The translations under genes and the position numbers were made by a program. 64,000 nucleotides of DNA from Myxococcota bacterium (GTDB lineage Bacteria > Myxococcota_A > Bradymonadia > UBA7976 > UBA1532). Shown one piece after another: positions 9,273 through 25,487 of the stretch. The stretch lies in the NCBI GenBank assembly GCA_023150895.1, contig JAKLJY010000012.1, forward strand, positions 336 to 64,335, written 5' to 3'. Position 1 is the first letter of the stretch, and the number at the start of each line of letters is the position of its first letter. The notes under the pieces were generated by a model. That model ran no database searches, was not told the DNA's origin, and saw only the letters and a program-made list of their open reading frames with translations.

Positions 9273-9289
9273 GGGGCGGTTGTATCGCA

Positions 9290-9329
9290 GACGACGGCGT
9301 TGTTCCATAAACAACAACCGGCCGTCGTC
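9290..9329. promoter_or_regulatory. near-perfect 15-bp-arm inverted repeat between divergent norR and the hemerythrin-like gene
   Basis: GACGACGGCGTTGTT-ccataa-AACAACCGGCCGTCGTC. It sits about 20-55 bp upstream of the norR ATG and about 90 bp upstream of the hemerythrin ATG. Confidence 0.45.
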
Positions 9330-9420
9330 CTCAGAACAACACGGCCGCCGCGAAACGGCCTGCCATGCGGAGCGCAGTGTCGGCACGGCGCGTGAAGAGG
9401 GGAGGACCCGAACGCAACGC

Positions 9421-9954
9421 ATGACCGGCCCCCCCAACCCCCCCCGAACCGACGCCGTCACGCCGACGGAAGACGAGCGCGCAAAGCGTTGGGCCGACGC
9501 CCCGCTGGCCGAACTCATCGATCACGTCCTCGGCGTGTACCACCGCGCGCACACCGAAGCGCTGCCCCGCGTGCGGGTGCTGGCGAGGGCAGCGGTGGAT
9601 GAGGCGACCGACGAGGCACGCCCCGCGCTGCTCGAGCTGGAGAGACTGTTGCAGGGGCTCGCCGACGAGCTCGCCGATCACATGCACAAGGAAGAGACCG
9701 TCCTCTTCCCCTGGATCCGCTCCGGGCGCGGGCGCACGGCCGGCGCGCCGATGCGCATCATGTGCGCCGATCACCAGCGGTCGACGGAGACGCTGATCAC
9801 CCTGCGTCGCCTCGCCGGCGCGTTCGACGCAAGCCGCCCGGCGTCCCCCGCGCGCCAGGCGCTCTGCGTCGAACTCGAGCGCCTCGAACGCGACGTGGAC
9901 GAACACATCCACCTCGAGAACGACATTCTGTTCCCGCGCGCGCTCGCGGGATGA
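9421..9954 (+). CDS. hemerythrin-like (HHE cation-binding) domain protein, DnrN/NorA/RIC-like
   Basis: Two HHE-type motifs are present (DHMHKEETVLFPW and DEHIHLENDILFP). It is transcribed divergently from norR and sits immediately upstream of norC. Confidence 0.6.
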   Translation: MTGPPNPPRTDAVTPTEDERAKRWADAPLAELIDHVLGVYHRAHTEALPRVRVLARAAVDEATDEARPALLELERLLQGLADELADHMHKEETVLFPWIRSGRGRTAGAPMRIMCADHQRSTETLITLRRLAGAFDASRPASPARQALCVELERLERDVDEHIHLENDILFPRALAG

Positions 9955-9979
9955 CGACACGAGAGAGAGGAGAGGATCG

Positions 9980-10669
9980 ATGCTGTCAAAGTCCGCCGCG
10001 CGCACGTTTTTCGTGGCCGGCACCGGCGTGTGCGCCGCCGCATTCCTCGGTCTGACCTTCGACACGCTGGCGAAAGTGCCCGAGCGTTCGAAGGCCGCTC
10101 AGATGACCGAGAGCGTGCGACGCGGCCACGATCTGTGGACCGACAACAACTGCATGGGGTGTCACACCCTGCTCGGCGAGGGGGCCTACTACGCGCCCGA
10201 GCTGACACAAGTGGTGAATCGCCGCGGGGCGGCCTGGATCAAGACGTTCCTGAAGGACCCCGAGGCCATGTTCCCCGGCAAACGCAAGATGGTCCGCTAC
10301 GACTTCACGGATCGGGATCGCGACGACCTGGTGGCCTTCTTTTCCTGGGTCGGTGAGATCGATACCAACGGGTTCCCGCCGACGCCGGTGTATCGCATGA
10401 CGGGCGGACCCGCGGTGGGCGCCGCCCCCATGAAGGGCACGCCGCCCCCGACGTTCGAGCAGGTCTGCGTGGCCTGTCATGCGCTCGGCGGCAAGGGCGG
10501 TGCGGTTGGCCCGGCGCTCGACGGCGTGGCGAGCCGCTACACGACGGAGAAGCTGCACACCTGGCTCGCCGATCCGCAGGCCGTGAAGCCGGGCACGGCG
10601 ATGCCCAACCTCGGTCTGAGCGAGGCCGATCGCGGCGCGCTCGTCGACTTCCTCATGCTGCAGAAGTGA
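9980..10669 (+). CDS. norC: nitric oxide reductase subunit C-like membrane-anchored cytochrome c with additional C-terminal heme c domain (two CxxCH)
   Basis: A GGAGAGGA RBS precedes the ATG. An N-terminal TM anchor is followed by CMGCHTLLGEGAYYAPEL (NorC-like) and a second site, CVACHALGGKGG. Located directly upstream of norB. Confidence 0.8.
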   Translation: MLSKSAARTFFVAGTGVCAAAFLGLTFDTLAKVPERSKAAQMTESVRRGHDLWTDNNCMGCHTLLGEGAYYAPELTQVVNRRGAAWIKTFLKDPEAMFPGKRKMVRYDFTDRDRDDLVAFFSWVGEIDTNGFPPTPVYRMTGGPAVGAAPMKGTPPPTFEQVCVACHALGGKGGAVGPALDGVASRYTTEKLHTWLADPQAVKPGTAMPNLGLSEADRGALVDFLMLQK

Positions 10670-10679
10670 GAGGCACGCC

Positions 10680-12023
10680 TTGAAATACTCTACGCAACGC
10701 ATCGCGTATCTGTTCTTCGCGACGAGCATGTTGCTGCTCACGCTGCAGATCATCTACGGCTTCATCATGGGCTTCGCGCACATGGGCTACGACGGACTGC
10801 ACTCGGTCATCCCGTTCAACGCCGCCCGCGCGACGCACACCAACCTGCTGGTCATGTGGCTGCTGAGCGGCTTCATGGGCGCGGCGTATTACATCATCCC
10901 CGAAGAGGCCGAGCGCGAGCTGATGTGGCCGAAGCTGGCCATCGTGCAGTGGGCGGCGCTCGTCATTACCGGCGTCACCGCCATCATCGGGTTCCATCTG
11001 AACTGGTGGGAGGGCCGCAAATTCCTGGAGATCCCGCGCGGGCTCGACTTCCTGGTGGTCGTCGACGTGCTCATGTTCATCTTCAATATCGCCGCGACGA
11101 TCTGGCGCGGCAAGCGTATCACGACGACGAGCTCGGTGCTGTTCTTCGGTCTGCTCGCCGCGGCGCTGCTCTATCTGCCGGGCATGATCACCTTCGACTC
11201 GCAGGTCCTCGACAGTTACTTCCGCTGGTGGGTGGTTCACCTCTGGGTGGAGGGCGTCTGGGAGCTCATCATGGGCGCGATTCTCTCGTACCTGCTCATC
11301 AAGATGACGGGGGTGGACCGCGAGATCGTCGAGAAGTGGCTCTACATCATCGTGGGCGTGACGTTCCTGTCCGGCATCCTGGGCACGGGCCATCACTACT
11401 ATTACATCGGCACGCCGAAGTACTGGCTGATGATCGGTGGCATTTTCTCGGCGCTCGAGCCCCTGGCCTTCCTGGGCATGGCGTTCTATGCCATCGGCAT
11501 GGCGCGCAAGGGTGGTCGGCAGCACCCGAACAAGATCGCCCTCACCTGGACGCTCGGCTGCGCGGTGATGAGCTTCGTCGGTGCCGGTTTCCTCGGGTTC
11601 GCGCACACCCTGCCGGCCGTCAACATGTGGACGCACGGCACGCTGGTCACCGCCATGCACGGCCATCTGGCCTTCTGGGGCGCCTACGCGATGCTCATCT
11701 TCGCGATGATCGCCTACGCGTTGCCCGAGATGACCGGCCGGGCCATCTACAAGGGCCGTCTCGCGGAAATCTCGTTCTGGACGAGCAACATCGGCATGGT
11801 GGCGATGACCGGCGCGTTCGCGGTGGCCGGCGTGGCGCAGGTCTACATGGAGCGCATGTCGGGGATGGACTTCCTGGCCGTGCAGGAAGCCATCGAGGTG
11901 CACTTCCTGGGCCTGGTGCTGGCGGCGACGCTCTTCAGCGTGGGCATCGTGGCCTTCATCGTCGACTTCGTGCGCTACGGCAAACCGCAGCCGGTCGACG
12001 GCGGCGCGGCGGTGACGGTCTGA
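10680..12023 (+). CDS. norB: nitric oxide reductase large subunit NorB (heme-copper oxidase family)
   Basis: TTG start giving MKYSTQRIAYLFF, a typical NorB N-terminus. 12 TM helices. Conserved His ligands are present (GHHYYYIG, HGHLAFWGAY). GAGAGG RBS. Confidence 0.9.
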   Translation: MKYSTQRIAYLFFATSMLLLTLQIIYGFIMGFAHMGYDGLHSVIPFNAARATHTNLLVMWLLSGFMGAAYYIIPEEAERELMWPKLAIVQWAALVITGVTAIIGFHLNWWEGRKFLEIPRGLDFLVVVDVLMFIFNIAATIWRGKRITTTSSVLFFGLLAAALLYLPGMITFDSQVLDSYFRWWVVHLWVEGVWELIMGAILSYLLIKMTGVDREIVEKWLYIIVGVTFLSGILGTGHHYYYIGTPKYWLMIGGIFSALEPLAFLGMAFYAIGMARKGGRQHPNKIALTWTLGCAVMSFVGAGFLGFAHTLPAVNMWTHGTLVTAMHGHLAFWGAYAMLIFAMIAYALPEMTGRAIYKGRLAEISFWTSNIGMVAMTGAFAVAGVAQVYMERMSGMDFLAVQEAIEVHFLGLVLAATLFSVGIVAFIVDFVRYGKPQPVDGGAAVTV

Positions 12024-12028
12024 GCGTC

Positions 12029-12829
12029 ATGTCGACCCCGACCCCCACCCCGACCCCTTCGCTGCCCTGGTATCTGCCGGTCGGCCATGAGATCGAACTG
12101 TTCGAACACTGCCACCGGCAGCGTGTGCCGCTGATGCTCGAGGGGCCGACGGGGTGCGGCAAGTCGCGCTTCGTGGAACACATGGCCGCGCGGCTCGGGC
12201 GTCCGCTGGTGACGGTCTCTTGCCACGACGATACCTCGGCCGTGGATCTGCTCGGTCGTTACCTGGTGGTCGGGGGCGACACGCGCTGGCAGGACGGGCC
12301 GGTGACGCGGGCGGTGCGGCAGGGGGCCATCCTCTATCTCGACGAGATCGTCGAGGCGCGCTCGGACGTCGTCGTGGTGATTCACCCCCTGACGGACCAC
12401 CGCCGGCAACTCGTCGTCGATCGGCACGACGAGGTGCTCGCCGCCCCCGACGCGTTCATGCTCGTGACGAGCTTCAACCCGGCCTATCAGCACGGTCTGA
12501 AGGCCCTGAAGCCGTCGACGCGGCAGCGGTTCGTGGGCATGAAGTTCGACTACCCCGAGGCCGCCGTCGAGCTGAAGGTCCTGACGGGTGAGACGGGCAT
12601 CGACGAGGGCACGGGGAAACGCCTCGTGGCGCTCGGCCGCAAGCTGCGCGGGCTCGACGAGCTCGGCCTCGCGCATGGGGCGTCGACGCGACTCCTGGTG
12701 AACGCCGCACGCCTGATCGTCTCCGGGCTGCCGCCCCGCGTGGCCGCCCGAGCGGCGCTCGTCGAGCCGCTGACGGACGACCCCGAGGTCGTCGCGGCCC
12801 TCTCCGACCTCGTCGCACTCGCGTTCTGA
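12029..12829 (+). CDS. norQ: NorQ/CbbQ-type AAA+ (MoxR family) ATPase
   Basis: Walker A LEGPTGCGKSRF. The ATG lies 5 nt after the norB stop. Confidence 0.85.
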   Translation: MSTPTPTPTPSLPWYLPVGHEIELFEHCHRQRVPLMLEGPTGCGKSRFVEHMAARLGRPLVTVSCHDDTSAVDLLGRYLVVGGDTRWQDGPVTRAVRQGAILYLDEIVEARSDVVVVIHPLTDHRRQLVVDRHDEVLAAPDAFMLVTSFNPAYQHGLKALKPSTRQRFVGMKFDYPEAAVELKVLTGETGIDEGTGKRLVALGRKLRGLDELGLAHGASTRLLVNAARLIVSGLPPRVAARAALVEPLTDDPEVVAALSDLVALAF

Positions 12830-12830
12830 C

Positions 12831-14720
12831 ATGAGTTGGGACGCCGAAGAGGTCCTCTTCCGCGCCGTGCGCGGGGCCTGGCGTGCCGTGGCCGGGCGCC
12901 CCGGCCCCCGCCTCGACGACGAACGCGCCGTGCGTCTGCCAGAGATCGAAGCCCGTCTGCTCGCCCTCGCGCAGACCCTCGCCGGGCGGCGCCTGCTTCT
13001 GAAACCGGCGGAGACCGTCGGCGGCGTGCGCGGGGTGGTTCTCCTGCTGCCGGCCGTCGTCGACGTCGGCACCACGCGGGCCGACGCCCTCGAACACAGT
13101 GTGTTGCGCACAGTGATCTCGGCCCGGATTGCCGCCACGCCCGCCGATGACACGGGCGGGTCGCCGGCGGCCGGCCGCGACGGGCTCTCCGCCACGGTGG
13201 ACGCCCTGCTCGCCGCCCGCGCGGCCATCGACGCCCTCTGCGTCGAGTGGCCCGGCTTCGCTGCGCGCCATGCCGCCGCCGTGCGTCGAGAGTTCGAGGT
13301 CCGCACGCGACCGGCCCGGGAGACCCCGCGCGAGGCCGCTCTGGAAGACCTGCGCCGGGCGCTCGCGGAGGGTCTCCCCCTGCCCGACCGGGCGGCGGTG
13401 CTCGCGCGGCTGCGGGCGTTGCCACACAAGGGACCCGCGCGACCGGGGTTTCTGCTCTGGGGAGAGGCGCCCGCGGCGACCGATCTGTCCCTGGCCGACG
13501 CGGCGATGGCCGCCGCAGACCTCGCCGTCCGACCGCCGGACGGGGACGAGCGGATCGCCCCGCCGCGCGACGCGGTCGAACGCATCTTCTTGCCGAAGAC
13601 GGAAGAGATCGAACCGCTGCCGATGCACACCTTCGAGAAGATCGAGACGCTCGAGGCCTTCAAGGGCGGCCTGCGCAAACTCGACGGCGACGATGAGCTC
13701 GAGGAGCACCTCGAGGCCCTGAGCGAAGTGGATCTTCGGCAGGTGCTGCGCGGCGGCGACGACGTGCATGGCATCTATCGCGCCGACGTCGACCTCAGCT
13801 CGGACATCCCGGATGTGTCGCGCGCGGGCACCGACGAGCGGGGCATCCCCTACGACGAGTGGGACGCCCGGCGGGGAGTCTATCGCTCGCACTGGACCAC
13901 CGTGTACCCGGTCGTCGCGACGACGCGCGCGCCCGGCAGTGGCGCCGAGGCCGCGCGCCGCAACGGGCGGACGATCCGGACGCTGCTGCGCCGCCTGGAG
14001 GCCGAACGAACCCGATTCGCCCACGTTGATCGGCAGCTGGAAGGCGACGACGTGGACCTAGACGCACTCGTCGACGAGCACGGCCTGCGCCAGAGCGGTC
14101 ACGACGCGCCGGGCCGTGTCTATGTGCGGCGCGAACGCCGACAGCGCGACGTCGCGACGACACTCCTGCTCGACATCAGCCTGTCGGCACAGTCGTGGGT
14201 CGAGAATCGCTGCGTCCTCGACGTCAGCCGGGACGCCGCCGTCGTGCTCGGCGAGGTGGCGGCGAAGCTCGGGGACGCGCTGGAAATCCTGGCCTTCGCG
14301 AGCAACACCCGGAACCTGTGTCGAGTGTTCACGCTCAAGGCCTTCGACGACCCGTGGTTCGCGGTGCGCGACCGCCTCGGCGCCCTGGCCCCCCAAGGCT
14401 ACACCCGCGTCGGCCCCGCGCTGCGCCACGCGACGGCGGGTCTGCGCGGACGCCCGGAGCGCCATCGGATGCTGATGCTCGTCACCGACGGCAAACCGAC
14501 GGACTACGACCGCTATGAAGGCGCCTATGGCATCGCGGACGTTCGACAGGCGGTGCGCGAGGCGGCGCGGGACGGCATCGTCGTGCACGCGCTCGGCATC
14601 GATCCGCGGGCCCGCGGCGCGCTGCCGGCGATGTTCGGCCCGGGCGGTTGGGAGGTCGTGCGGCACGTCGGCGAGCTGCCGGCCGCAGTGACCACGGCCT
14701 ACGGCAAGCTCAGAAGCTGA
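12831..14720 (+). CDS. norD: NorD (von Willebrand factor A domain protein)
   Basis: The ATG lies 1 nt after the norQ stop. The C-terminal VWA domain contains LMLVTDGKPTDYD (MIDAS-like). Confidence 0.85.
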   Translation: MSWDAEEVLFRAVRGAWRAVAGRPGPRLDDERAVRLPEIEARLLALAQTLAGRRLLLKPAETVGGVRGVVLLLPAVVDVGTTRADALEHSVLRTVISARIAATPADDTGGSPAAGRDGLSATVDALLAARAAIDALCVEWPGFAARHAAAVRREFEVRTRPARETPREAALEDLRRALAEGLPLPDRAAVLARLRALPHKGPARPGFLLWGEAPAATDLSLADAAMAAADLAVRPPDGDERIAPPRDAVERIFLPKTEEIEPLPMHTFEKIETLEAFKGGLRKLDGDDELEEHLEALSEVDLRQVLRGGDDVHGIYRADVDLSSDIPDVSRAGTDERGIPYDEWDARRGVYRSHWTTVYPVVATTRAPGSGAEAARRNGRTIRTLLRRLEAERTRFAHVDRQLEGDDVDLDALVDEHGLRQSGHDAPGRVYVRRERRQRDVATTLLLDISLSAQSWVENRCVLDVSRDAAVVLGEVAAKLGDALEILAFASNTRNLCRVFTLKAFDDPWFAVRDRLGALAPQGYTRVGPALRHATAGLRGRPERHRMLMLVTDGKPTDYDRYEGAYGIADVRQAVREAARDGIVVHALGIDPRARGALPAMFGPGGWEVVRHVGELPAAVTTAYGKLRS

Positions 14721-17700
14721 GCCGGTCCGTGCCCACCGGGCGACGGCGCCGACGCCGGGCGACGGCGAGAGCGAGCAGCACGAACGGGAGCACCGCGAGG
14801 CTCCCGGAGGACGACGAACCGGGGACCGCCATGCAGCCCGCCCGTCCGTCGAGGGCGGCCTGCCGCGTGCGCGGGCCGGCCCCGGTGAGATCCGCGGGCG
14901 CTGACCCGGCGGGCCTGAGGGCGTCCGGCGCGTCGGGGTCCGGGGCGGGTTCGGGTTCGACCGGCTCGTTCGCCTCCGCGCCGGGTCGTGCGGGCGGGCC
15001 TGCATCGAGATCGCCCGGCGGCAACTCCGGCTCGGGCTCCGGCTCGGGCTCGACGGGCCCGCCGTCGTCACGCGCGGGCAGTGTATCGATGATCGCGCTC
15101 GCCCCCGCCGACGTCTGTACCCAGACCGGCCGGGGTGTCCAGGGCGGGCCCTCTGTGAGCGCGGCGACCTCGCCGGCGGGCACGGTCGCGACGGCGTCGA
15201 AGTCGAAGTGCCAGGCCGCCATGACGTCGGCGTTCGGGACGTGCCGCCGGTGCGTCCCGTCGACCACCCACACCTCGGGCGCGCCGTCGTCGCTGCGGAT
15301 GAGGCGCGGAGCGGCCGGGAAGTCATCGCTCTCGGCCCGGGCGTCGACCTCGGCCGTCGGCGCCGGCAGGGCGTCGAAGAAGGGATCGAGGCGCCAGGGA
15401 CCCGCGTCGACGAGCAGCCGACGCTGCCCCGGCGGCGGTGTCGGCGCGCACTCGAGCGTCGCGGGACTGCCATCGAGCTCGGCGTTCGCGCCCCCGGCCG
15501 CGCCGATGGCATAAGCGTGCACGGGGTGCGGCGCGCCGTCGAACAGACTGAACGGGGGCGCAAAAGCGAAGCCGTGCTCGCAGCTCCCGAGGGGGCCGCA
15601 CAGGTCGTCGCGGCGGTCGTCGGCCCGCACGGAGACACCGGGTGCCGCCCCGCCCGCCGGGCCGCCGAAGTACAGATGAACGTCGAGGGGCGCCGCGGCG
15701 TCGTCGGGATCCTGCGCCCACCCCCGCGCGGCGTCGCAGCCGGCCGCCTCGAGGTTGCCCTGCGGCGGTGCGTCCGGCGGCTCGACCTCGACGGACCAGA
15801 AGTCGAGACCCGTCTCGTCGATCACCGTCTGCAGACTGTCGTTGTAGCTCGCGTAGCGCTGGTTCCAGCAGCCGTAGTCGGGCCGGCAACCGTTGTAGTA
15901 ATGCGTGACCGTGCGGATCCACTGATCGCGCAGCGTCGCGTCGTGGATGTCGAAGTTCTGGAGCCAGATGAGCGCCCGCTCCTCGTTCTCGGCGTTGCGC
16001 GTGTATTGCGAGCGGAACGTCATGTTCACGACGTAGTCGATGGCATGGCTGACGTTGCCGGCCACCAACAAGACATCCCGCCCGTAGCGACCGAGCGTGT
16101 CGTCGAACGTGCCGGCGTCGAACTGAAACATGCCGAGGCCGCCTTGACGATCGGCGCAGGGACCGTCGGCCGATCCGGCGATCACCGGCCCGCCGCCGCA
16201 ATCCGCGCTGTCCGGTCCCTGACAGGCCCACTGCGCCTCGGACCAACAGTGGGCGAGGCCCGTCTCGGCGTGCGCGATGCCGCCGAGCAAGTACCCGGTG
16301 CGCGTCAGGCCCCGCGCGGCCGCGGCGTCGCGGATTTGGGCGTACCGTGCCATGCGCTGCTCGCGATTGAGGGCGGCCTGCACCGTCTCGAGCGCAGGCA
16401 GCGCGCGGCCCTCCGGTTCGGGTGCAGGGTACTCACACCCGGGGAGTATCGACGCGAGCGCGGCGACCGCGGCCACGACGCCGGCCCGGCGCTGGCTCGG
16501 ACGACGGCGGCGGTGGCGCGGGAGCCCGAGTGTCAGCAGCAAGAGTGCCCCCGCCCCCGGCCCCGCGGCCCCCGGACGCTGCGTGCAGCCGCCCCCACCC
16601 TCGAAGGCGGCGTGTGTCGTGCGAAGTCCCGGCCCCTCGGGGCGCGGCACCCCGGCGTCGAAAACGCCGTCCGGCAGCGGCGACGGCGGCGTCGACCCCT
16701 CCGGGGCATCACCGTCGGGGGGCGTGGCGTTCACGGGCGGGCGGTCGTGACCTGCATCCGCCCACGGCGCGCCCCCATCGGGCTCCGTCGGCGCAGGCGG
16801 ATCGGGCGGCCCCGCCGTGGCGTCCGCTTCGCCCTCCACGGGCGTCACGGCGGCGTCCGGCGTTTCCGGCGTCACGGGCGGGTCCGGCGTCTCGGGCGGA
16901 CCCGGCGGGGGCGGCACGTGCGGCCGGATGCGCACCGCGTCGACCAGGATGTGTTGATCGCCCGGCACGTTGCCATCGTAGTTGTCGAAGACCTCGACGG
17001 CCTGCGCCTCGCCGGCGCCGAAGGAGTACACCCCGAGCGGCTGCCACCCGTCGACGGCGCTCTGATCGACGATCACATCGTCGGCCCCGCCCGGGTGACG
17101 CACCGTGTACCGCGTCCGCGGCCAGATCCCGTAGGCGCCGCCCGTGCGGACCTCGACTTCGTAATCGCCGGGCACGGAGACGTGCAGCGACCAGCGCGCC
17201 CAGTTGTCCGGCTCCGCGGCGGCGAAGGCGTTCGTCCAGCGCAGGCGCCCGCCCTCGCCCTGACCGTCGACGATGCGCCAGTAGTTCGACGGCCCGAACG
17301 CCCGGAAACAGGTGCTCGCGTCGTCGACGACCCCGCCCTCCGCCGGCAGGGGCTCGCAGGGGAGCCCGACACACGGGCCGCCCCCCGGGCCACCGCCCCA
17401 CCACTCCCAGTGCCAGTCCTCGCTCGGCACGGTCCGCTCGAAGCCGTACGCCGCGCCGTTGGCGTTGAGCCAGCGCAGGACGCCGCCCGCCGCCGTGTTC
17501 AGGTCGAGGGCGTGTCCGCTCTGATGGTTCGAGAACCCGGGCCGCGCCGCGAGGTTGCAGTTGTTGCAGTTGCAGTTCTGGTAGCAGTTCCAGAAGTACG
17601 TCTGCTCGTCCATCGTGCGAAAACCGCTGGAAATGCGGATGTTCACGCCGTCGTTCGCCGCCGCCGCCTGCATGACGATGTACGCGTTGGCCGTCTCGCG

Positions 17701-17928
17701 TTCGACCGGCTCGCCATCGACGCTCACGACCGTGATGTCGAAGGGCTCGCCCTGCACGTACCCCGTGTCCGTGCGTTCGCTACAGTCGTAGACCGCCTGC
17801 TCGATGGTCTCGAGATCCGGGGGTCGCACGAAGTCCCGGCCGTCGTCCGGGTCGGGACCGGGCGCGCCCGGGTAGGTGCAGCCGACGAAGGCCAGGGCGA
17901 TGAGCCCGAGACGGACCGATGCGCTCAT
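14710..17928 (-). CDS. secreted two-module lipoprotein: N-terminal M15 (VanY-like D-Ala-D-Ala carboxypeptidase) module ending in a MYXO-CTERM-like segment, then lipobox-like segment + lysozyme/SLT-like module + terminal MYXO-CTERM
   Basis: Lipobox MSASVRLGLIALAFVGC. M15 motif GFSNHQSGHALDL. An internal sorting-signal-like segment, GGGGCTQRPGAAGPGAGALLLLTLGLPRHRRRR, is followed with no stop codon by AGVVAAVAALASILPGCEYP, then HAETGL...GGLGMFQFDAGTF, and a terminal MYXO-CTERM GCMAVPGSSSSGSLAVLPFVLLALAVARRRRRR. GAGGAG RBS. An ATGA overlap joins it to the upstream PLD gene. Confidence 0.6.
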   Translation of the reverse strand: MSASVRLGLIALAFVGCTYPGAPGPDPDDGRDFVRPPDLETIEQAVYDCSERTDTGYVQGEPFDITVVSVDGEPVERETANAYIVMQAAAANDGVNIRISSGFRTMDEQTYFWNCYQNCNCNNCNLAARPGFSNHQSGHALDLNTAAGGVLRWLNANGAAYGFERTVPSEDWHWEWWGGGPGGGPCVGLPCEPLPAEGGVVDDASTCFRAFGPSNYWRIVDGQGEGGRLRWTNAFAAAEPDNWARWSLHVSVPGDYEVEVRTGGAYGIWPRTRYTVRHPGGADDVIVDQSAVDGWQPLGVYSFGAGEAQAVEVFDNYDGNVPGDQHILVDAVRIRPHVPPPPGPPETPDPPVTPETPDAAVTPVEGEADATAGPPDPPAPTEPDGGAPWADAGHDRPPVNATPPDGDAPEGSTPPSPLPDGVFDAGVPRPEGPGLRTTHAAFEGGGGCTQRPGAAGPGAGALLLLTLGLPRHRRRRPSQRRAGVVAAVAALASILPGCEYPAPEPEGRALPALETVQAALNREQRMARYAQIRDAAAARGLTRTGYLLGGIAHAETGLAHCWSEAQWACQGPDSADCGGGPVIAGSADGPCADRQGGLGMFQFDAGTFDDTLGRYGRDVLLVAGNVSHAIDYVVNMTFRSQYTRNAENEERALIWLQNFDIHDATLRDQWIRTVTHYYNGCRPDYGCWNQRYASYNDSLQTVIDETGLDFWSVEVEPPDAPPQGNLEAAGCDAARGWAQDPDDAAAPLDVHLYFGGPAGGAAPGVSVRADDRRDDLCGPLGSCEHGFAFAPPFSLFDGAPHPVHAYAIGAAGGANAELDGSPATLECAPTPPPGQRRLLVDAGPWRLDPFFDALPAPTAEVDARAESDDFPAAPRLIRSDDGAPEVWVVDGTHRRHVPNADVMAAWHFDFDAVATVPAGEVAALTEGPPWTPRPVWVQTSAGASAIIDTLPARDDGGPVEPEPEPEPELPPGDLDAGPPARPGAEANEPVEPEPAPDPDAPDALRPAGSAPADLTGAGPRTRQAALDGRAGCMAVPGSSSSGSLAVLPFVLLALAVARRRRRRPVGTDRLSF

Positions 17929-20258
17929 TCTACAGTCTCCTCATCACACATCGTCGCCCGGGTACACGCTTCGCCGGGACCGCACGGCGACTGCGCATCG
18001 ACGTGGGTGAACGCACGGTCCATGTCGCACGCGAACGCATCGTAGACCGCCGCATTGCGAATGCGGAGCATGGCCTCGTCGTTCCGACGCAGCGAGTCGC
18101 GCGTGTAGTTGTGCGAGCCGGCGTAGACCGTCTTGCGCCCGCCCTCGTCGATCAACATGTATTTCGAATGACTCGTCACGTGGCGGCTCTGGCGACAAAA
18201 GACCTTCTGGTTGGTCCTGCGCAGCGCCCGCATCACCTTCGGGCTCGGCAGGGTGCCTCCGTGGAACGTCCCCATCAGAACGTCGACCCGGCAACCGGCG
18301 TTCCGTTTGCGACGCAGCGCGTGGTAGACCGCGCGGCGATCCTTGTTGAAGAACGCGACGTGGACGCGAATCGTGCTCGGGTTCTCGGGCGAACCGCAGT
18401 CGACGCCGCGAATCGCCTTCGCGACGGGGTCGTCCGCCCGCGGGAAGAAGAAGGCCGTCACCGTCCCGTCGTCGCGGCGCCACTTGCGCGTCTGTTGATA
18501 GAGCGTGCGCGTCTGTCGTCGCAGGGCCTGCCAGTAGGCCTCGAAGTGATCGTAAAGCCGCTTCTGGTCTCGCACGATCACCAGATGATTGAAGCGATGG
18601 TCCTGACTCTCCACGAAGTTCTGCGAGCCGTGCGCGACGATGTGCTTCCCGCCCTCGTTCGCGAGTTCGGACACCAGCAGGAACTTGTTGTGGTTGATCT
18701 TGTCGCCGATGCACCCGCCGTTCGAGCAGATCGTGAGCTTGTCCTCGCCGACGGCGGCCTTCAGCGCGGCGAGGGGCGTGTTGCGCTGATTCTTGGCCTT
18801 GCCGTCCTTCACGACGCGCAGATCGCCCGTCTTCCGCGCCTCATCGAGCGCGGCGACGTAGTCGTCTTCGTGGATCTGGAACATCGCGAGGCGCAGTTCG
18901 GCGTCCGGCGCGGCGCCCCGCAGGAGCGCCTTGTACCGATCCCGGATGGCGGTGCTCTTGCGCGCATTCGCGACGTCGTTGAACACCACCTCGATGAAGT
19001 TCGAGTCGTCCGTCTCGTCCGGGGGCGTCACCGCGCAGACGGCCTGTTTGGGTGAATCCGGAGAGACGTCGGGCACGACCTGGTCGTCCTCCGACTCGAC
19101 GTCGAACGTGGCCTCCGTCAGGCCCGCGGCGTCCTCCGCGTCGGCCTCGGGGCCGCCACAGACCCCCCACCGGGCCTCGAGCAGCCCGCCGCGCCCGTCC
19201 TCGGCGCAGAACGCCATCGCCGCCTCGGTACACTGGAAGCCCGTGTCGACGAACTTCTCGCGGCGCGCGCCGACACAGGTGGCACAACACTCGAGACAGG
19301 GCTCCGTGCGCTGATACAGCGGGACGACGTTCTCGCAGGCCGGCTGCGAGAACGAGATGGCCACCGTCTTCCGGTGCTCCCGGCATTGGCGCCACTGCGC
19401 CTGACACGTCTGCGCGTCGGGCGCCTCCATGACGAAGCGCGTGTCGTCGCAACAGACGACGGTGCATGTGCCCGGACCGGGGGCGGGTGCATCGCATACG
19501 GGAGGGGCGTCCGGCGGGCTCGGCGCGTCGACGCCCGGGGCCGGCTCCGGGTCGGGCTGGCAGTCGGGGTCCGTATCCGGATCACACAACGAGTCTTCAT
19601 CGCAGATGCCATCCGGCTCGGCGCAGTCGACGCAATCGGGATCCGTGCCCGTCGCGCACGGCTCGGGCTCGTCGCAGAACCCGTCGGGCGTCGCGCAGAG
19701 CGGGTCGGCGTCCGCGGCGGGGACGCCGTCGTCGTCGGCATCGGCGCAGTCCGGATCCGTGCCGGCGGCGCAGATGACGCCTTCGTCACAGATGCCGTCG
19801 GGCACGCCGCAGTCCGGGTCGCCCGCCGGCCCGAGGGGCACGCAATCCGGATCCGTCCCCGGGGCGCAATGGTCGGGCTCCTGGCAACGACCGTCGGCGA
19901 TTTCGCAGGCGCCGACGGGGGCCGCCACCGGCACGGCGCCCGCCGGCAACGGCCGCGCGACGTCGGGGGTCGGGCACGCATCCGCCGGCGCACCGGTCTC
20001 GCGTCCGCACGCCGCCACGTCGAAGCCCAACGGCCCCGACGCCGCCGGGGTGGCTGCGGGCCCTTCGTCCTCCGGATCGGCCGCCCAGGCGGGGGTGTCG
20101 ATGGGCGCGAGGGTCGCCGACCCGCCCGTCGGGCCGGCCGCGTCACCGGCCGAGGCGCCCCCCGTCGCACCGGCTTCGCCGCCATCGTCTGCGCCGGGCG
20201 AGCAGGCCGCACCGAGCAGCGACAGCAGCAGCAACCGACACGAGAGGGGCAGGCGCAC
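17925..20258 (-). CDS. phospholipase D family lipoprotein with N-terminal Cys-rich CxxGTDPDC repeats
   Basis: Two HKD-type motifs (HNKFLLVS...GSQNF and HSKYMLIDEGG...GSHNYT). A GTG start gives MRLPLSCRLLLLSLLGAAC, with GGAG upstream. The track ORF's first 292 aa are an Arg-rich alternate-frame extension. Confidence 0.7.
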   Translation of the reverse strand: MRLPLSCRLLLLSLLGAACSPGADDGGEAGATGGASAGDAAGPTGGSATLAPIDTPAWAADPEDEGPAATPAASGPLGFDVAACGRETGAPADACPTPDVARPLPAGAVPVAAPVGACEIADGRCQEPDHCAPGTDPDCVPLGPAGDPDCGVPDGICDEGVICAAGTDPDCADADDDGVPAADADPLCATPDGFCDEPEPCATGTDPDCVDCAEPDGICDEDSLCDPDTDPDCQPDPEPAPGVDAPSPPDAPPVCDAPAPGPGTCTVVCCDDTRFVMEAPDAQTCQAQWRQCREHRKTVAISFSQPACENVVPLYQRTEPCLECCATCVGARREKFVDTGFQCTEAAMAFCAEDGRGGLLEARWGVCGGPEADAEDAAGLTEATFDVESEDDQVVPDVSPDSPKQAVCAVTPPDETDDSNFIEVVFNDVANARKSTAIRDRYKALLRGAAPDAELRLAMFQIHEDDYVAALDEARKTGDLRVVKDGKAKNQRNTPLAALKAAVGEDKLTICSNGGCIGDKINHNKFLLVSELANEGGKHIVAHGSQNFVESQDHRFNHLVIVRDQKRLYDHFEAYWQALRRQTRTLYQQTRKWRRDDGTVTAFFFPRADDPVAKAIRGVDCGSPENPSTIRVHVAFFNKDRRAVYHALRRKRNAGCRVDVLMGTFHGGTLPSPKVMRALRRTNQKVFCRQSRHVTSHSKYMLIDEGGRKTVYAGSHNYTRDSLRRNDEAMLRIRNAAVYDAFACDMDRAFTHVDAQSPCGPGEACTRATMCDEETVE

Positions 20259-20317
20259 GGGACTTCTCCGGGGGACAAAACGACCACGAACGAACCATCG
20301 GCCGGTCGCGCGAACGC

Positions 20318-22126
20318 TCACGGCGGCTCCAGGATAGACGCGCGGTGCGTGTAGATCACGTCCCATGGACCCGTGGGGTCGTCGGCGGGCGCGCCGAACC
20401 CGACCGCCTCGACGCGGGTGTTGCCGAGCCGGAAGACCGTGAACTGCAACCGGCCGTCGTTGTGCGGGTTCGAATAGAGGGGCGTGCCGACGCTGTAGGT
20501 CGGGATCGAGATGGCGGCATACGGAGCCGGGCACTGCCATACTTCGCGCTCCGGCGCGTGGTGATTGTGGCCGTGCAGGTGCGCGACGACCGGATACTCG
20601 GCGGCGAGCTTCGGTCCGGTGAAGTCCCCCGTGCCGCGTTTGGCGTCGTCGAGAATCTCGCACAACCGGAGATGCTCGTCGTCCGTGTTGTCCGCCGCAC
20701 CGAAGTGAAAGTGCGAGATCAGCACGATGCGTCGCCGCCGGCTGTCGGTCCGCGTCTCGAGGAACGACCGCAGAAAGCGCAGCGCACGGTGCGGATCGGC
20801 GACCCGGAGTCCGTCCTCCGAGGGCATCTGTTGCGCATCGTTGCCGGCTTCGAGGTCCAGCATGACGAACCAGATGTCGTCCCACCGCCAGGCGTAGTGG
20901 CCGGTGCCGGCCACGGGGTCGTCGTACACGTCGTCGGGCCCGTTCACACCGCCCGGTCGGAACGGCGTCGAGCGCGCATCGAGGGCGTCGACGACGGGGT
21001 GAAAGTGTTCGCCCGGCACGCCGGCCACCCGCGGGAAGTCGTGGTTGCCATACCCGTCGTAGACCGGGATGGCCAGCCGCCCCTCGTCGCCGCAGGCACC
21101 GAACGCATCTCGATACGCGCGATACTGGCGGCACGTGGTCGTGCCCGCGGGAATGGACTCGTCACCCGACTGCGTGAGATCACCGGCGATGATGGCCCCG
21201 CGGACGTGATCGAACGGCAGACCGGCGCGGGTGACGTCGGGGTCGTCGGGCCAGAGGTGCGCGCGCCAGAACACCGACGGGATCAGCGCGTTGATCGCCG
21301 CTCGCATCCGTTCGTTGCCGTCGATGTGGAAGCCGCGGACGCTGCCGCACCCGGCCTTCGCCTCCGTCGCGTGCGTGTCTGCGAAGGCGACGAAGGTGAT
21401 GTCCCGGTCGTCCTGTGTCTCGGGGCTCGACCACCACTGCATCGGATCGAACGTGCAGGCCCGAACCTCGGTCGGCAACGAACAGGCGCCCCGGATGCAG
21501 AGTTCGTCGACACCGCAGCGGACGCCGCAGCCGCCGCAGTTCTCCGCGTCCGTGAAACCGAGGGTGCACTCCCCGGAAGCCGCGTTCCCCGGACAACACA
21601 GCGCGGCGAACAGACCGCACGTGTCCGGATCACAGCGGGTGCAGAACGGGGCGCCCCCTTCGGGTCCGGGCAGGCAGCGTTCGTCGGGGCCGCAGGCGCT
21701 GCAATCGTCGACGGGCGGCGGGCGCGCCGCGTCCGGGGTCGGCACGGCACCGGCATCACGCCAGGCCTCGGCGCCGTCGTCCTCGCCGCCTTCACCGCCC
21801 CCACCGTTCTCCGCAATCGCGCCGCCGGCACCGGAGTCGGGCAACGCAGGCTTCGGCGGCTGCGCGTCGACCCGGACCGCCCCGGGGACCCCGGCATCGA
21901 GGACCGGTTCTGAAGCGCCAGACCCGGCCTCCCGACCCCGCGACGGCTCCACGGCCGCATCGCGCGCCATGGCCGGGCCGCTGAAGGCGGCGTCGGTCGC
22001 CCCCGTCAGGTCGGTCGCGCCGCCCGAGCCGTCCGGGTCGCGGTCTGCAGCCGATTCGGGTGTCGCGCAGGCCGCCACGAGGGCGAGTCCGACGAAGGCG
22101 GACGCAAACGACACGGGACGTGACAT
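20318..22126 (-). CDS. calcineurin-like metallophosphoesterase lipoprotein
   Basis: Start at the internal ATG giving MSRPVSFASAFVGLALVAAC. Phosphoesterase motifs GDLTQSG, GYGNHDF and HLHGHNHH. GGAGGAGGAG upstream. Confidence 0.65.
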   Translation of the reverse strand: MSRPVSFASAFVGLALVAACATPESAADRDPDGSGGATDLTGATDAAFSGPAMARDAAVEPSRGREAGSGASEPVLDAGVPGAVRVDAQPPKPALPDSGAGGAIAENGGGGEGGEDDGAEAWRDAGAVPTPDAARPPPVDDCSACGPDERCLPGPEGGAPFCTRCDPDTCGLFAALCCPGNAASGECTLGFTDAENCGGCGVRCGVDELCIRGACSLPTEVRACTFDPMQWWSSPETQDDRDITFVAFADTHATEAKAGCGSVRGFHIDGNERMRAAINALIPSVFWRAHLWPDDPDVTRAGLPFDHVRGAIIAGDLTQSGDESIPAGTTTCRQYRAYRDAFGACGDEGRLAIPVYDGYGNHDFPRVAGVPGEHFHPVVDALDARSTPFRPGGVNGPDDVYDDPVAGTGHYAWRWDDIWFVMLDLEAGNDAQQMPSEDGLRVADPHRALRFLRSFLETRTDSRRRRIVLISHFHFGAADNTDDEHLRLCEILDDAKRGTGDFTGPKLAAEYPVVAHLHGHNHHAPEREVWQCPAPYAAISIPTYSVGTPLYSNPHNDGRLQFTVFRLGNTRVEAVGFGAPADDPTGPWDVIYTHRASILEPP

Positions 22127-22319: not shown

Positions 22320-23504
22320 TCAGAAGTTCGACACGACCGGCGCGCAGGTCGAGACCCCCGCGCCCACGATCCGGCGCCCCGTCTCCTCCACGGCCACCAC
22401 CGTTCGGCCCGTGACCGGGTCGAATCGGAGGACGCGGGACGCGACCCCACCGGCACCGTCGGACTCGCTGATGAACACGAAGAACTGCCCGCCCCAGTGG
22501 GCGAACGCCCAGCCCGCAGGCTGCCCGCGCAGGCCCGGCAGAGGCCACTCCTGCTCCACGAAGGCGTCGGACTTGTCGATGCGCGCGACGCTGCTGTTCG
22601 GCCCCGGCCAGTAGGCCCAGAGCTCTCCGTTGCCATTGCCGGTCAGCTCGGCGCCGTAGTCGTGGGCGGGCAGCACCCCCACCTCCGTCACACCGCTTGC
22701 GCGGGCGTCGACCGTCCCGAGGCGCCCGAGTTCGATGGCGTCGACCGGGCCGCCGGCGACGTGCAGGGTTTCGGACTGCGTGTCTTCCCCGTCGCTCACG
22801 AAGGCCATGCCGAAGAGCTGAAAGCCCCCGTCGCCGGGCGGAAACGGTGAGCGCTGGCAAGCCGCCGTGGCCGTGTCCACCCAGAAGATCTCGCCCGAGC
22901 CGAAGAGCACCCAGGCGCGGGCCTGTCGGTCGACCGCCATGGAGAACGGTGTCGCGGTGCCCTCGCCGAAGTCCGGCCAGATGGGCCCGGCGGGACAGTC
23001 GAGGCGGCCGACCCGCGCGAAGTCCGACGTCCGCGGGTCGAAGCTGAGCAGTGTGTTCTCGGCGTCGACGACGTAGATGAGCTCGGAACCGGTCGCGCAG
23101 TCCGTCACACACTTGCCGTTGGCGCAGCCACTTTCGCAGTCCGCGATCTTCTCACCCCGGGCGCCGTCGACGCCGCAGGCGAAGAGCGCGCTGCCCTCGC
23201 AGACCGCGACTTCGCCCGGACTGCAGGCCGCGCAGCCGACCCCGGGCACGCAGGCGGCCGTCGCGGCGCAGACCTGCACCTGCACGAACTCCCCGCCCTG
23301 ACAGACCGAGTAGGCGCTGCCCGCGCAGGTGCCCGACCCCTCGACGCAGCCCGTCCCCACCGCCGCGTCGAGCCCGACGCTTTGCGGGTCGTCGTCGGCG
23401 GGCGCATCCGTACACGCTGCAATGGCGAGTCCGAGCCCGGCGACGAGCGCGCAGGCCGCGGTCACGGGAAGGCGAGGGCGGAGGGGTCGATGGGTGCGGC
23501 GCAT
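22320..23504 (-). CDS. hypothetical lipoprotein (Cys-rich N-terminal region, beta-propeller-like C-terminal region)
   Basis: ATG giving MRRTHRPLRPRLPVTAACALVAGLGLAIAAC (lipobox). Confidence 0.5.
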   Translation of the reverse strand: MRRTHRPLRPRLPVTAACALVAGLGLAIAACTDAPADDDPQSVGLDAAVGTGCVEGSGTCAGSAYSVCQGGEFVQVQVCAATAACVPGVGCAACSPGEVAVCEGSALFACGVDGARGEKIADCESGCANGKCVTDCATGSELIYVVDAENTLLSFDPRTSDFARVGRLDCPAGPIWPDFGEGTATPFSMAVDRQARAWVLFGSGEIFWVDTATAACQRSPFPPGDGGFQLFGMAFVSDGEDTQSETLHVAGGPVDAIELGRLGTVDARASGVTEVGVLPAHDYGAELTGNGNGELWAYWPGPNSSVARIDKSDAFVEQEWPLPGLRGQPAGWAFAHWGGQFFVFISESDGAGGVASRVLRFDPVTGRTVVAVEETGRRIVGAGVSTCAPVVSNF

Positions 23505-23556: not shown

Positions 23557-25296
23557 CTACTCCCCCACCCCGGTCACCCGCCGCACGCCCGTCCGGAGGC
23601 CGTTTGCGCTGGCCGTTCCGCCGAACCGCGGGCGCGAGAGGACGAGCCAACGCTTGACGTCGCCCTCGACGAGGCAGAGGTCGCCGGTGTCGACGGGGAA
23701 GCCCGCACCGGCGATCTGGATCGGCGGCGCGTCGGGCGGGCGGGAGGCGAGCAGGGTGTAGCCGTCGAGGGGAAGCGGCGCGCCGGCGACGTCGAAGAGG
23801 GTCGCCATGACATCGACGTGGGCGGAGCGGTCGATCTCGCGAGCCGGAGCCGCTCCGGCCGGCAGGCAGAGGATCAGCGGCACCTCGACGCGAACGCGGT
23901 GAAACCGGTTCGTGCCATGGCCGAGCTGTCCGTCCTCCCAGAACGCCTCGCCGTGGTCACCGACAATGGCGATGAACGTCTCGGGCCCCTGCGCGGCGAG
24001 CACCCGGCCGAGCTGGCGGTCGACCCACCGCACGGCGTTCAGATACCGCGCGCGGATGGCATCGGCCCTGTGTCGCATCCGGTCGCCACCGAAGAGGTCG
24101 GCGAAGTCCGGTCGCGCGTGGCGGCCGTAGGGGGTGAAGTCCGGCGGGGCGTCGTAGTCGAAGTGCGTGGCGTCGAAGAACAGAAAGCCGAACGCCGGCG
24201 CACGTCCGGTGCGCGCGAGCGCAAAGTCGGCGATGAGACTGTCGCGCACGGCGGCCGAGGGGTGGTCCGGCTCGTGGTAGGCCTCGAGCTGATCGACCAT
24301 CAGCGCGGCACCGTTCCAGGCCCGCAGCGCCGAGGCGGATGCCCCCCAGGTGTGATAGCCGTTGTGTCGAAGCGTCGAGAGCGTGAGGGCCGGGACGGGC
24401 GGCTGCGCCTCGGCGAAGGGGATGAACCGGTGCGCGTCGAGACCGTAGATCAGCGAGAAGATGCCCTGCTCCGTCGAGGTCCCGCTCGCGAAGTGTTGCC
24501 GGGAGACCAGACAGCCCCGCTCGGCCGCGTAGCGGCTCACGATGGGCATGTGTTCGGGCGTGAACGCGTCGGCCCGGAGGGACTCGACGGCAACGAGCAG
24601 GATGTCGGGTTTCGACCGCATCGTGGGGGGCCCGCCCGCCGGAAACGCCGGCACCGGGACGTCGAGCGGGCCGGGGGGCACGGCCCCGAACAGGGGCTCG
24701 AAGAGGGTGAGGGCGCGGGCCATGCCCGTTTCGGGCGCGAACGCGGTCTGCCCGGCCGCGGCGAAAACGAGGGCGGCGAAGAGGCCGGCGGAGGCGACCC
24801 GCCGCGGCCACGGCCCCGGCGTCGGTCGGGTCTTCATGAACCGAACGACCGCCCCGGTGAGTGTGAGGAAGAACGCCAGACACACCCCGCCGACGAGCAG
24901 AAAGACCCCCGCGCCGAGGTGCATCTCGCGGTTGGGCTCGGCGTTGTCGAGCGCCCGCTGCACGATGGGCCAATAGAGGTGCAGTCCCTGGGCGGCGGCC
25001 ACCTGCAGGTCGATGAGGTGCAAGCTCCAGGTGAGCCCGCCGGCGAAAACGAGGCCCGCCGCCGCCGCACGCGGCCAACCGAGTCGCGCCATCGCGCGGG
25101 CGAGGGCACCGGTGCCGACCGCCAGGAAGACCGACAGCGCGAGACCCCAGGCGAAAGCCGCGACGAGGTCGACGGTGGACGTCGTGACCTCGAACGTCTG
25201 CAAAAGTCGCGGCAGCGTCCAGGCCTGGATTGCGAAATGGGCCGCCGCGAGCACGGCCGTCGCACGCCAGAGCGCGCCCTCGACGCCGGGTGTCAT
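23557..25296 (-). CDS. sulfatase-like hydrolase/transferase (LTA-synthase / phosphoethanolamine-transferase-like) with N-terminal multi-TM domain
   Basis: About 5 TM helices, then a sulfatase domain (ILLVAVESLRADAF, IAIVGDHGEAFWEDGQLGHG). Start is the internal ATG at the first TM (MTPGVEGALW). An alternative ATG is at 25440. Confidence 0.6.
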   Translation of the reverse strand: MTPGVEGALWRATAVLAAAHFAIQAWTLPRLLQTFEVTTSTVDLVAAFAWGLALSVFLAVGTGALARAMARLGWPRAAAAGLVFAGGLTWSLHLIDLQVAAAQGLHLYWPIVQRALDNAEPNREMHLGAGVFLLVGGVCLAFFLTLTGAVVRFMKTRPTPGPWPRRVASAGLFAALVFAAAGQTAFAPETGMARALTLFEPLFGAVPPGPLDVPVPAFPAGGPPTMRSKPDILLVAVESLRADAFTPEHMPIVSRYAAERGCLVSRQHFASGTSTEQGIFSLIYGLDAHRFIPFAEAQPPVPALTLSTLRHNGYHTWGASASALRAWNGAALMVDQLEAYHEPDHPSAAVRDSLIADFALARTGRAPAFGFLFFDATHFDYDAPPDFTPYGRHARPDFADLFGGDRMRHRADAIRARYLNAVRWVDRQLGRVLAAQGPETFIAIVGDHGEAFWEDGQLGHGTNRFHRVRVEVPLILCLPAGAAPAREIDRSAHVDVMATLFDVAGAPLPLDGYTLLASRPPDAPPIQIAGAGFPVDTGDLCLVEGDVKRWLVLSRPRFGGTASANGLRTGVRRVTGVGE

Positions 25297-25487
25297 CGAC
25301 GGCGCGGCCGGCGGCGGGGCGCAGTGGCGAGGGACCTGGGGGTGGGTCGCGACATGCCCGAAGCCTCGCCCAGGCCCGCGCGCGAGGCAAGGCCGGGGCG
25401 TTCGGCCACCAGCGTTTTCACGGCGACCGTTTGCGGACATGATGCGCGGGTGCCCGAGACGTGCTCCGCCCCCGAGGAGAAAAGCCC

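Follow-up and report, generated by a model that had tools for sequence, protein, structure and literature searches.

Does one long reading frame of a freshwater Myxococcota bacterium encode a single multidomain hydrolase, or two enzymes joined end to end? The question is raised by a gene for 1072 residues, here called gene C (14710-17928, minus strand), which lies in a window of 64,000 nucleotides, by which we mean the whole stretch of DNA analysed (GenBank assembly GCA_023150895.1, contig JAKLJY010000012.1, positions 336 to 64,335 of the forward strand; GTDB lineage Bacteria; Myxococcota_A; Bradymonadia; UBA7976; UBA1532). Gene C is the last of three consecutive minus-strand lipoprotein genes, after gene A (20318-22126; 602 residues, found both as an open reading frame (ORF) and by gene calling) and gene B (17925-20258; 777 residues, GTG start). 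The original prediction treated gene C as one multidomain protein within an operon of three secreted hydrolases. We found instead that gene C consists of two complete precursors fused in one frame. Each of them has both a lipobox signal and a MYXO-CTERM sorting tag. The hydrolases of the cluster are of ordinary, known kinds, and the fused gene is its notable part.

Two lipoprotein precursors in one reading frame

The first precursor (module 1) begins with a lipoprotein signal (MSASVRLGLIALAFVGC, with Cys17; 17878-17928, minus strand, as for all features of gene C) and continues with a VanY/peptidase M15B catalytic domain (residues 40-180; 17389-17811), a Golvesin_C-type accessory domain (residues 238-334; 16927-17217) and a Pro-rich linker (residues 337-443; 16600-16920), before it ends in an internal MYXO-CTERM sorting domain (residues 444-476; 16501-16599) composed of a GGGGC448 motif, a transmembrane helix and the Arg cluster RHRRRR. 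The catalytic domain matched the VanY family PF02557 over residues 75-178 (E = 2.5e-15; 56.9 bits, cut-off 25), and both metal/catalytic motifs of this family (SxHxxGxAxD and ExxH) are present, as SNHQSGHALD at residues 133-142 and EDWH at residues 170-173, which supports the M15 peptidase assigned to this gene originally. The scores of the same domain on NCBIfam equivalog models were all far under the cut-offs.

The second precursor (module 2) is composed, in this order, of a lipoprotein-type signal (residues 477-498; 16435-16500; PSQRR, then AGVVAAVAALASILPG, then C498), a helical domain (residues ~520-715; 15784-16371), an immunoglobulin (Ig)-like beta-sandwich (residues ~722-830) and a small alpha/beta domain (residues ~835-950), the latter two at 15079-15765, a linker and a terminal MYXO-CTERM tag (residues 1028-1063; 14740-14847) with RAGC1032, a transmembrane helix and RRRRRR. 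The helical domain is marked by AETG at residue 554, a Cys-rich loop, GLGMFQF at residue 597 and YYNG at residue 677.

The two precursors meet in a junction of about 50 residues, in which the Cys448 motif, a transmembrane helix, an Arg cluster, an h-region and the lipobox Cys498 follow one another; residues 444-498 read GGGGC-TQRPGAAGPGAG-ALLLLTLGL-PRHRRRR-PSQRR-AGVVAAVAALASILPG-C. A single Arg cluster is shared by the two: it forms the predicted cytoplasmic tail of the first tag and supplies the second signal with an n-region. MYXO-CTERM signals had been predicted on this gene, and two were found, both with the tripartite layout of such tags (GGGGC448...ALLLLTLGL...RHRRRR and RAGC1032...LAVLPFVLLALAVA...RRRRRR). 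The internal tag scored 21.9 bits on TIGR03901.2 (cut-off 20), and the terminal one scored 19.7 bits, just under that cut-off, but reached 16.5 bits on TIGR03382 (cut-off 15.85). The second tag is terminal, and the internal one is not C-terminal, with 596 residues following it; nor is the internal lipoprotein signal N-terminal, as it starts at about residue 473. A positive n-region, an uncharged h-region and a lipobox Cys were found in this internal signal ending at C498 as well as at the N-termini of A, B and C. The latter three are all positive, hydrophobic and of the [GA]-Cys type, with LVAAC20 in A, LGAAC19 in B and FVGC17 in C, and the lipoboxes of B and C follow the classical L-[AS]-[GA]-C less strictly. 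The junction (16420-16623, minus strand) also gave a weak match to NF058595, the 'lipo-invert putative C-terminal anchoring domain' (E = 0.036). Membership in that family, on which no paper was found, was rejected at 14.4 bits against a cut-off of 37.

Both modules also occur alone. Stand-alone homologs of module 2, its nearest relatives (P0116-P0120; 500-620 residues, 59-68% identity), have an ordinary N-terminal lipobox signal where gene C has its internal one, together with a MYXO-CTERM tag of their own, and stand-alone relatives of module 1 (P0007 and P0008) are likewise complete precursors with lipobox and MYXO-CTERM. The fused form was recovered in an independent assembly, Logan SRR17665588 (contig in three samples), which contains the same DNA with identical gene calls, including the 1072-residue ORF. 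Moreover, an ortholog (P0002) on a 266-kb ENA contig, identical to the gene of a Lake Mendota 'Bradymonadia' metagenome-assembled genome (MAG; L011), is 76% identical to gene C and keeps the junction in frame with a 2-residue indel; its VanY domain is 93% and its helical domain 98% identical.

Recurrence of the junction and its enzyme partners

The retrieved homologs were screened for a hydrophobic stretch within the chain that runs into three Arg/Lys residues in a row (RRR-type); a Cys was not demanded. This screen yielded 20 proteins. Eighteen of them have a second hydrophobic run, which ends in [GAS]-Cys in all 18, and all of these also have an upstream Cys motif; the other two (P0055 and P0140) look like read-through past a normal MYXO-CTERM. 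A stricter pattern gave 20 distinct fused proteins. The spacing from Cys to Cys is 39-54 residues in all but P0095 (68 residues from the distant upstream Cys picked by the pattern, ~29 residues from a nearer one), and the second h-region begins 0-11 residues after the Arg cluster. When the internal tags of the other fused proteins were compared with TIGR03901.2, 16 of the 19 matched (best E = 1.2e-10).

The domains on the two sides of the junction, as assigned by Pfam, vary from protein to protein. Amidase_2 precedes VanY in P0003, P0032 and P0062 and follows it in P0100; SpoIID precedes VanY in P0035 and P0063 and follows it in P0006; NAGPA plus Golvesin_C is joined to VanY in P0004, and VanY to MopE plus lectin in P0025. 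The combination found in gene C occurs in reverse order, with the helical domain before VanY, in a Polyangiaceae MAG (L013, ORF 8911-12192, type identical to P0265) and in P0014. Because the domain pairings differ and occur in both orders across lineages, the junction has arisen repeatedly, through independent fusions. Such fusions are rare among proteins with the helical domain (1 of 139 new representatives of the family). In Enhygromyxa salina SWB007, two ORFs on the minus strand overlap by 4 nucleotides (L037, near reverse-strand position 4858): the first ends in a MYXO-CTERM tag and the second starts with a lipoprotein signal. This overlapping pair is possibly a pre-fusion state, from which a one-base change could make the fused form.

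Which activity, then, is joined to VanY in gene C? In AlphaFold models, with a predicted local distance difference test (pLDDT) score of 85 for residues 498-960 and 75 for the helical domain alone, an all-helical domain comes first and then the Ig-like sandwich and the small alpha/beta domain. Foldseek with the 463-residue model of module 2 gave Ig/FN3 matches only, which came from the middle domain, and for this reason the helical domain was modelled again by itself; N_BRCA1_IG matches were present in 11 of the 41 module-2 relatives. PDB sequence and profile searches with module 2 found no relative, and no match to the helical domain turned up in phage and plasmid collections searched by tblastn. 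The weak Foldseek hits of highest template modelling (TM) score (0.35-0.47, not significant) were GH73 Auto, GH19 chitinase, phi29 gp13-like proteins, phage tail lysozymes, FlgJ and SLT. In the hhalign comparison with lytic transglycosylases, AETG was paired with the catalytic Q-E-S and GLGMFQ with GLMQ, and YYNG was not aligned with AYNAG; widening the query profile to 120 diverse members gave P = 0.041 (probability ~1%), which is not significant. The lysozyme-like or SLT/GH23 module of the original prediction is unproven: hidden Markov model (HMM), PDB and significant fold matches were all absent and hhalign gave P = 0.04-0.11, which leaves a motif and weak fold resemblance.

The helical domain makes up a compact, undescribed family, found in 240 clusters (at 50% identity) when 1.84 billion representatives were searched. 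Because the same junction mostly pairs VanY with a second peptidoglycan-active enzyme, this domain would, by association, also act on peptidoglycan, and we regard it as plausible that it is a putative peptidoglycan glycosidase or lytic transglycosylase. The fused gene draws attention to a family of ~240 clusters that is modelled by neither Pfam nor NCBIfam and is strongly associated with peptidoglycan enzymes.

The cluster of predicted envelope or extracellular enzyme genes

Genes A, B and C stand at the end of a longer series of genes for cell-envelope or extracellular enzymes, in the order membrane-anchored sulfatase-family enzyme, Cys-rich lipoprotein, A, B and C. The sulfatase-family gene (23557-25296, minus strand) encodes 579 residues, with several predicted transmembrane helices in the hydrophobic N-terminal half and the Sulfatase-family domain at the C-terminus; such a layout is that of membrane transferases of phospho groups (EptA/LtaS/OpgB type; phosphoethanolamine/phosphoglycerol transferases) and not that of a soluble sulfatase. 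The lipoprotein gene that follows (22320-23504, minus strand) encodes 394 residues, with the signal LAIAAC and a Cys-rich N-terminal region, and its product found no Pfam match even at E<=10. It lies 193 nucleotides from gene A, and an alignment of this region 5' of gene A to that of the ortholog was uninformative.

The spacing of the three lipoprotein genes is as tight as first described. Gene A ends with TGA at 20318-20320 and the GTG start of gene B lies at 20258, so that the gap, given originally as 60 bp, measures 59 nucleotides; a GGAG is found 7 nucleotides upstream of this GTG, and the predicted ATGA at 17925-17928 is the stop codon of B overlapping the ATG of C. One strand, an overlap or short gaps and a kept order, as expected of an operon, were all found, with the same order and overlap in a sister lineage (L002). 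Since the sulfatase-family and 394-residue lipoprotein genes precede gene A on the same strand, with their synteny kept in that lineage, the unit probably comprises five genes, these two included, rather than three. The proposal of a co-expressed three-gene operon therefore stands as to direction and tight spacing, probably not as to its extent, and synteny supports it in one sister lineage only.

In L002 the order is sulfatase gene, an extra gene for 717 residues (no match in Pfam), a gene for 391 residues, A, B and C, with the same 4-nucleotide overlap; both the ATGA overlap and the 59-nucleotide gap are kept in the ortholog locus. Given many homologs of each and this syntenic ortholog set, A, B and C are real genes and no chance ORFs. 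The synteny extends well beyond the cluster, since L002 has an ortholog of an M10 protease gene of the window downstream of its fused gene. Elsewhere, stand-alone homologs of module 2 and of gene A mostly lie in unrelated contexts and not beside VanY or PLD genes. The single exception is a locus of a more distant genome (L009), where a homolog of A (54% identity) precedes a VanY gene at a distance of 56 nucleotides. The catalytic domain of this VanY shares 68% identity with that of gene C, and the gene that comes after the VanY gene is unrelated to module 2. In L009 (5920-7743 and 4361-5866, minus strand), the divergent neighbours of this pair encode an eCIS_core-domain protein and a Peptidase_M23 protein.

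Gene A encodes, after the signal ending in LVAAC20, a Cys-rich region (residues 150-235) and a calcineurin-like metallophosphoesterase domain (residues ~240-602). All five signature motifs of such enzymes (DxH, GD, GNHD/E, H and GHxH) are present, as ADTHA at 249, GDLTQSGD at 315, GNHD at 360, SHFH at 471 and GHNHH at 519, and they are conserved in the family alignment. Gene A itself matched neither PF00149 nor any other Pfam model even at E<=10, the NCBIfam search gave nothing useful, and no relatives were found by PDB sequence and profile searches. Among its relatives (41-96% identical), 22 of 30 matched Metallophos PF00149 (best E = 6.5e-10), so that the phosphoesterase assignment is borne out at the level of the family.

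Between its signal and a C-terminal phospholipase D (PLD) domain (residues ~430-760; 17979-18971, minus strand), gene B encodes a Cys-rich repeat of 22 residues, C-x3-DG-x-C-x-E-x3-C-x3-TDPDC, in four copies (residues 118-233; 19560-19907, minus strand), and then a further Cys-rich domain. Cys-rich N-terminal regions are thus common to gene A, gene B and the 394-residue protein. The PLD domain matched PF13091 PLDc_2 in two stretches (E = 2.6e-23; 82.8 bits, cut-off 27) and has two HKD motifs, HNKFLLVS at 523-530 with GSQN and HSKYMLID at 697-704 with GSHN, with Ser replacing Asp in the first. PDB sequence and profile searches with this domain gave no relative, and the search for a close relative of characterised function was likewise negative. 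Nucleases and synthases, too, belong to PLDc_2. Membership in the PLD superfamily, as originally predicted, is supported, and the phospholipid substrate is not established by the PLDc_2 label.

Several further genes surround the cluster. Convergent to gene C lies a norB/norQ/norD-like trio (10680-14720, plus strand) for COX1-family, MoxR/CbbQ-type AAA and VWA proteins, and the 3' end of the VWA gene overlaps that of gene C by 11 nucleotides. This block is absent from L002, in which the ortholog of a GAF-domain sigma-54 enhancer-binding protein (7671-9518, minus strand, in the window) follows directly after the fused gene. An 877-residue ORF (137-2770, minus strand) contains Peptidase_M10 and a MopE metal-binding motif, with a MYXO-CTERM tag at 143-244. 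A divergently oriented ORF of 261 residues (25461-26246, plus strand) gave weak LPMO_10/BIM1-like copper-protein matches and has a MYXO-CTERM tag at 26151-26243; its product may be a surface-anchored protein like lytic polysaccharide monooxygenases (LPMOs). The adjoining region (26253-32628, minus strand) encodes B12-binding radical SAM and large MopE-repeat proteins in overlapping long ORFs, so that the true starts are ambiguous.

Predicted processing, possible roles and known systems

How would a chain with two sorting signals in its middle be handled by the cell? In the passages on sorting in Guo, Haft & Wall (mBio 2025, PMC11980579), a MYXO-CTERM tag is described as a Cys motif, a transmembrane helix and a cytoplasmic Arg cluster, the helix holding the exported protein in the inner membrane until the myxosortase MrtX removes it in a Cys-dependent manner and the type II secretion system carries the protein to the surface. 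Those passages name TraA and MXAN_4924 as the only proteins with known cleavage and surface display of this kind, and they regard Lgt as the likeliest enzyme to lipidate the MYXO-CTERM cysteine (PMC11980579). MrtX is reported there to function in E. coli as well. The reading that we favour, with confidence modestly above even, builds on the observed architecture, conservation and recurrence of gene C; its topology, cleavage, surface display and target, namely the peptidoglycan of other cells and not the cell's own, are those that we infer. The product would form a hairpin that is cut into two surface lipoproteins within a cluster of envelope enzymes. Sec would export module 1, the MYXO-CTERM helix would stop transfer with the Arg cluster left in the cytoplasm, and the following h-region would restart export, now of module 2, to give a tight membrane hairpin. 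Lgt and LspA would then lipidate and cut at Cys498, and lipidation and myxosortase cleavage would take place at Cys448 and Cys1032, so that two enzymes of ~432 and ~535 residues and a 49-residue hairpin would be released. Since the part of the chain that follows the Arg cluster is arranged N-in/C-out exactly like a normal lipoprotein signal, a hairpin exporting both modules is the simplest reading.

A number of observations weigh against this reading. The processing steps are extrapolated from lipoprotein signals at N-termini and MYXO-CTERM tags at C-termini. In-frame GTG/TTG codons lie within the internal signal (GTG in the window, TTG/GTG in the ortholog). All fused genes found came from metagenome assemblies, with none in the cultured Nannocystis/Enhygromyxa loci fetched, and the cluster as a whole is kept in one sister lineage only. 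Scans of the cluster for promoters, terminators and sigma-54 sites gave no site above chance. As for the second enzyme, the helical domain had no Pfam or NCBIfam match at E<=10 in the window copy or in 41 relatives, no significant Foldseek match (best E 0.5 in the PDB and 0.076 in BFVD) and no significant hhalign score against an alignment of the catalytic domains of E. coli Slt70, MltC, MltD and EmtA (P = 0.11).

The same topology could also be an end state: an uncleaved, permanent two-helix hairpin would make gene C a bifunctional inner-membrane protein that trims the cell's own peptidoglycan in growth, division or sporulation. VanY/LdcB-type enzymes classically trim the wall of their own cell, and the cluster contains an inner-membrane sulfatase-family transferase, both of which speak for such a protein. 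Against it, the cysteines of the cleavage sites are kept in every junction although the screen did not demand them, most internal tags score as MYXO-CTERM, and the stand-alone relatives are ordinary precursors with lipobox and MYXO-CTERM; because a plain anchor would need neither the cysteines nor a MYXO-CTERM tag, we consider this alternative unlikely. The in-frame GTG (window) and TTG/GTG (ortholog) codons just before the h-region would allow module 2 to be made mainly from an internal start, the fusion then being only apparent and the two products overlapping. Yet these codons follow no Shine-Dalgarno-like sequence, the resulting signals would lack the positive n-region that every stand-alone homolog has, module 1 has no stop codon, so that the full fusion would be made anyway, and the junction recurs in ~20 unrelated pairings with 0-11 residues from Arg cluster to h-region, all of which makes internal initiation very improbable. 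High-GC genomes hold few stop codons, and P0055 and P0140 do look like read-through, both of which speak for an assembly chimera, a sequencing frameshift or a recent loss of a stop codon; the chance that gene C is such an artefact or a decaying gene is nonetheless close to nil, and we rejected it on the basis of the identical ORF in independent assemblies, the ortholog P0002 (76% identical, domains 93-98%, in-frame indel) and the independent fusions elsewhere.

The hairpin reading leaves the target to be considered, and here the original prediction offered its own model, in which a coupled three-gene cassette jointly dismantles prey envelopes by attacking phosphoesters, phospholipids, peptide cross-links and glycan strands. 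Tight spacing, the ATGA overlap and the PLD, M15 and metallophosphoesterase assignments are consistent with it, as are the MYXO-CTERM degradative proteins nearby (the M10 protease and the LPMO/BIM1-like protein). Members of the Myxococcota include predators, as noted in the relevant passages of PMC10433427, and the two MYXO-CTERM tags of gene C predict surface display with the cell's own sacculus out of reach, judging from the parts of PMC11980579 on sorting. Because surface display would put wall hydrolases beyond the own sacculus, action on foreign cells can be envisaged. Such a cassette is nevertheless doubtful: neither the lysozyme assignment nor the phospholipid substrate is proven, there are probably five genes in the unit, and the set has stayed together in one sister lineage only. 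A role in prey lysis is plausible, and sequence alone does not separate it from self-remodelling.

Beyond the favoured hairpin reading we put forward, tentatively and at less than even confidence, a broader proposal: the Myxococcota 'sorting-signal hairpin', a MYXO-CTERM tag and a lipoprotein signal with one Arg cluster in common, would be a self-excising linker by which one ORF yields two separately lipid-anchored surface peptidoglycan hydrolases in a fixed 1:1 ratio. This would be a bacterial polyprotein strategy, carried out within the membrane by myxosortase at one side and Lgt/LspA at the other, in which VanY would recur, joined to an amidase, an enzyme of the SpoIID type or a new family of lysozyme-like proteins. 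The searchable literature gave no description of internal lipobox processing or of MYXO-CTERM coupled to a lipoprotein signal, which may be described elsewhere. Genes of this type offer natural substrates with a C-terminal tag and an N-terminal signal back to back, on which the action of myxosortase and LspA at internal sites can be tested, and they point to a bacterial means of enforcing the 1:1 production and co-localisation of two wall-degrading enzymes. The junction also bears on the open question of which enzyme lipidates the MYXO-CTERM cysteine, for which Lgt is the candidate in those parts of PMC11980579. Annotations such as 'D-alanyl-D-alanine carboxypeptidase family protein' and 'N-acetylmuramoyl-L-alanine amidase' conceal these two-in-one precursors.

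Compared with known enzymes, gene C shares PF02557 and both motifs with the VanY/LdcB family M15B, and unlike the description of that family it carries a lipobox, a Golvesin_C domain, MYXO-CTERM tags and a second, fused enzyme. Its helical domain resembles the GH23 lytic transglycosylases (Slt70, MltC, MltD and MltE) and the lysozyme-like fold in being all-helical, hhalign sets its AETG and GLGMFQ against the catalytic E-S and the GLMQ of the SLT domains, and it takes the slot held by Amidase_2 or SpoIID in sister fusions; it differs in that no method scores the likeness as significant and in a conserved Cys-rich insertion of ~30 residues between the two motifs. Genes B and A have, respectively, two HKD-type motifs in common with the PLD superfamily and five motifs with the calcineurin-like metallophosphoesterases, and neither has a solved relative detectable by sequence.

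Regarding processing, the internal signal agrees with bacterial lipoprotein maturation (Lgt, LspA, lipobox) in its positive region, uncharged h-region, [GAS]-Cys and N-in/C-out orientation, and it departs from an ordinary lipoprotein signal in lying ~480 residues into the chain, where processing is putative. A precedent for an internal cut is the cytochrome b/c1 polyprotein FbcH of Bradyrhizobium japonicum, whose cleavage at an internal signal peptide, that of cytochrome c1, was reportedly described by Thony-Meyer and colleagues in 1989 and 1991. FbcH is likewise reported to be one ORF giving two mature envelope proteins, cut at an internal signal after a membrane segment; it is said to differ in using signal peptidase I, in its respiratory products, in the absence of lipidation and of a C-terminal sorting tag, and in belonging to a single family. 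Internal MYXO-CTERM tags are known as a rarity: the passages on them in PMC11980579 give MXAN_5598 (an adhesin joined to an outer-membrane barrel/OmpA) as the one example, with a proposed origin by gene fusion and proposed processing, and those on its internal tag make no mention of a signal peptide after the tag. Like the MYXO-CTERM tags of that system, the internal tag of gene C has the Cys signature, the transmembrane helix and the Arg cluster. In contrast to MXAN_5598 as it appears in those passages, the tag of gene C abuts a lipoprotein signal with which it shares the Arg cluster, both partners are enzymes, and the arrangement recurs ~20 times, mostly in pairings of peptidoglycan hydrolases. 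What appears new here, as far as the searchable literature shows, is the coupling of the internal tag and a lipoprotein signal, which have one Arg cluster in common, and its recurrence in pairs of peptidoglycan hydrolases.

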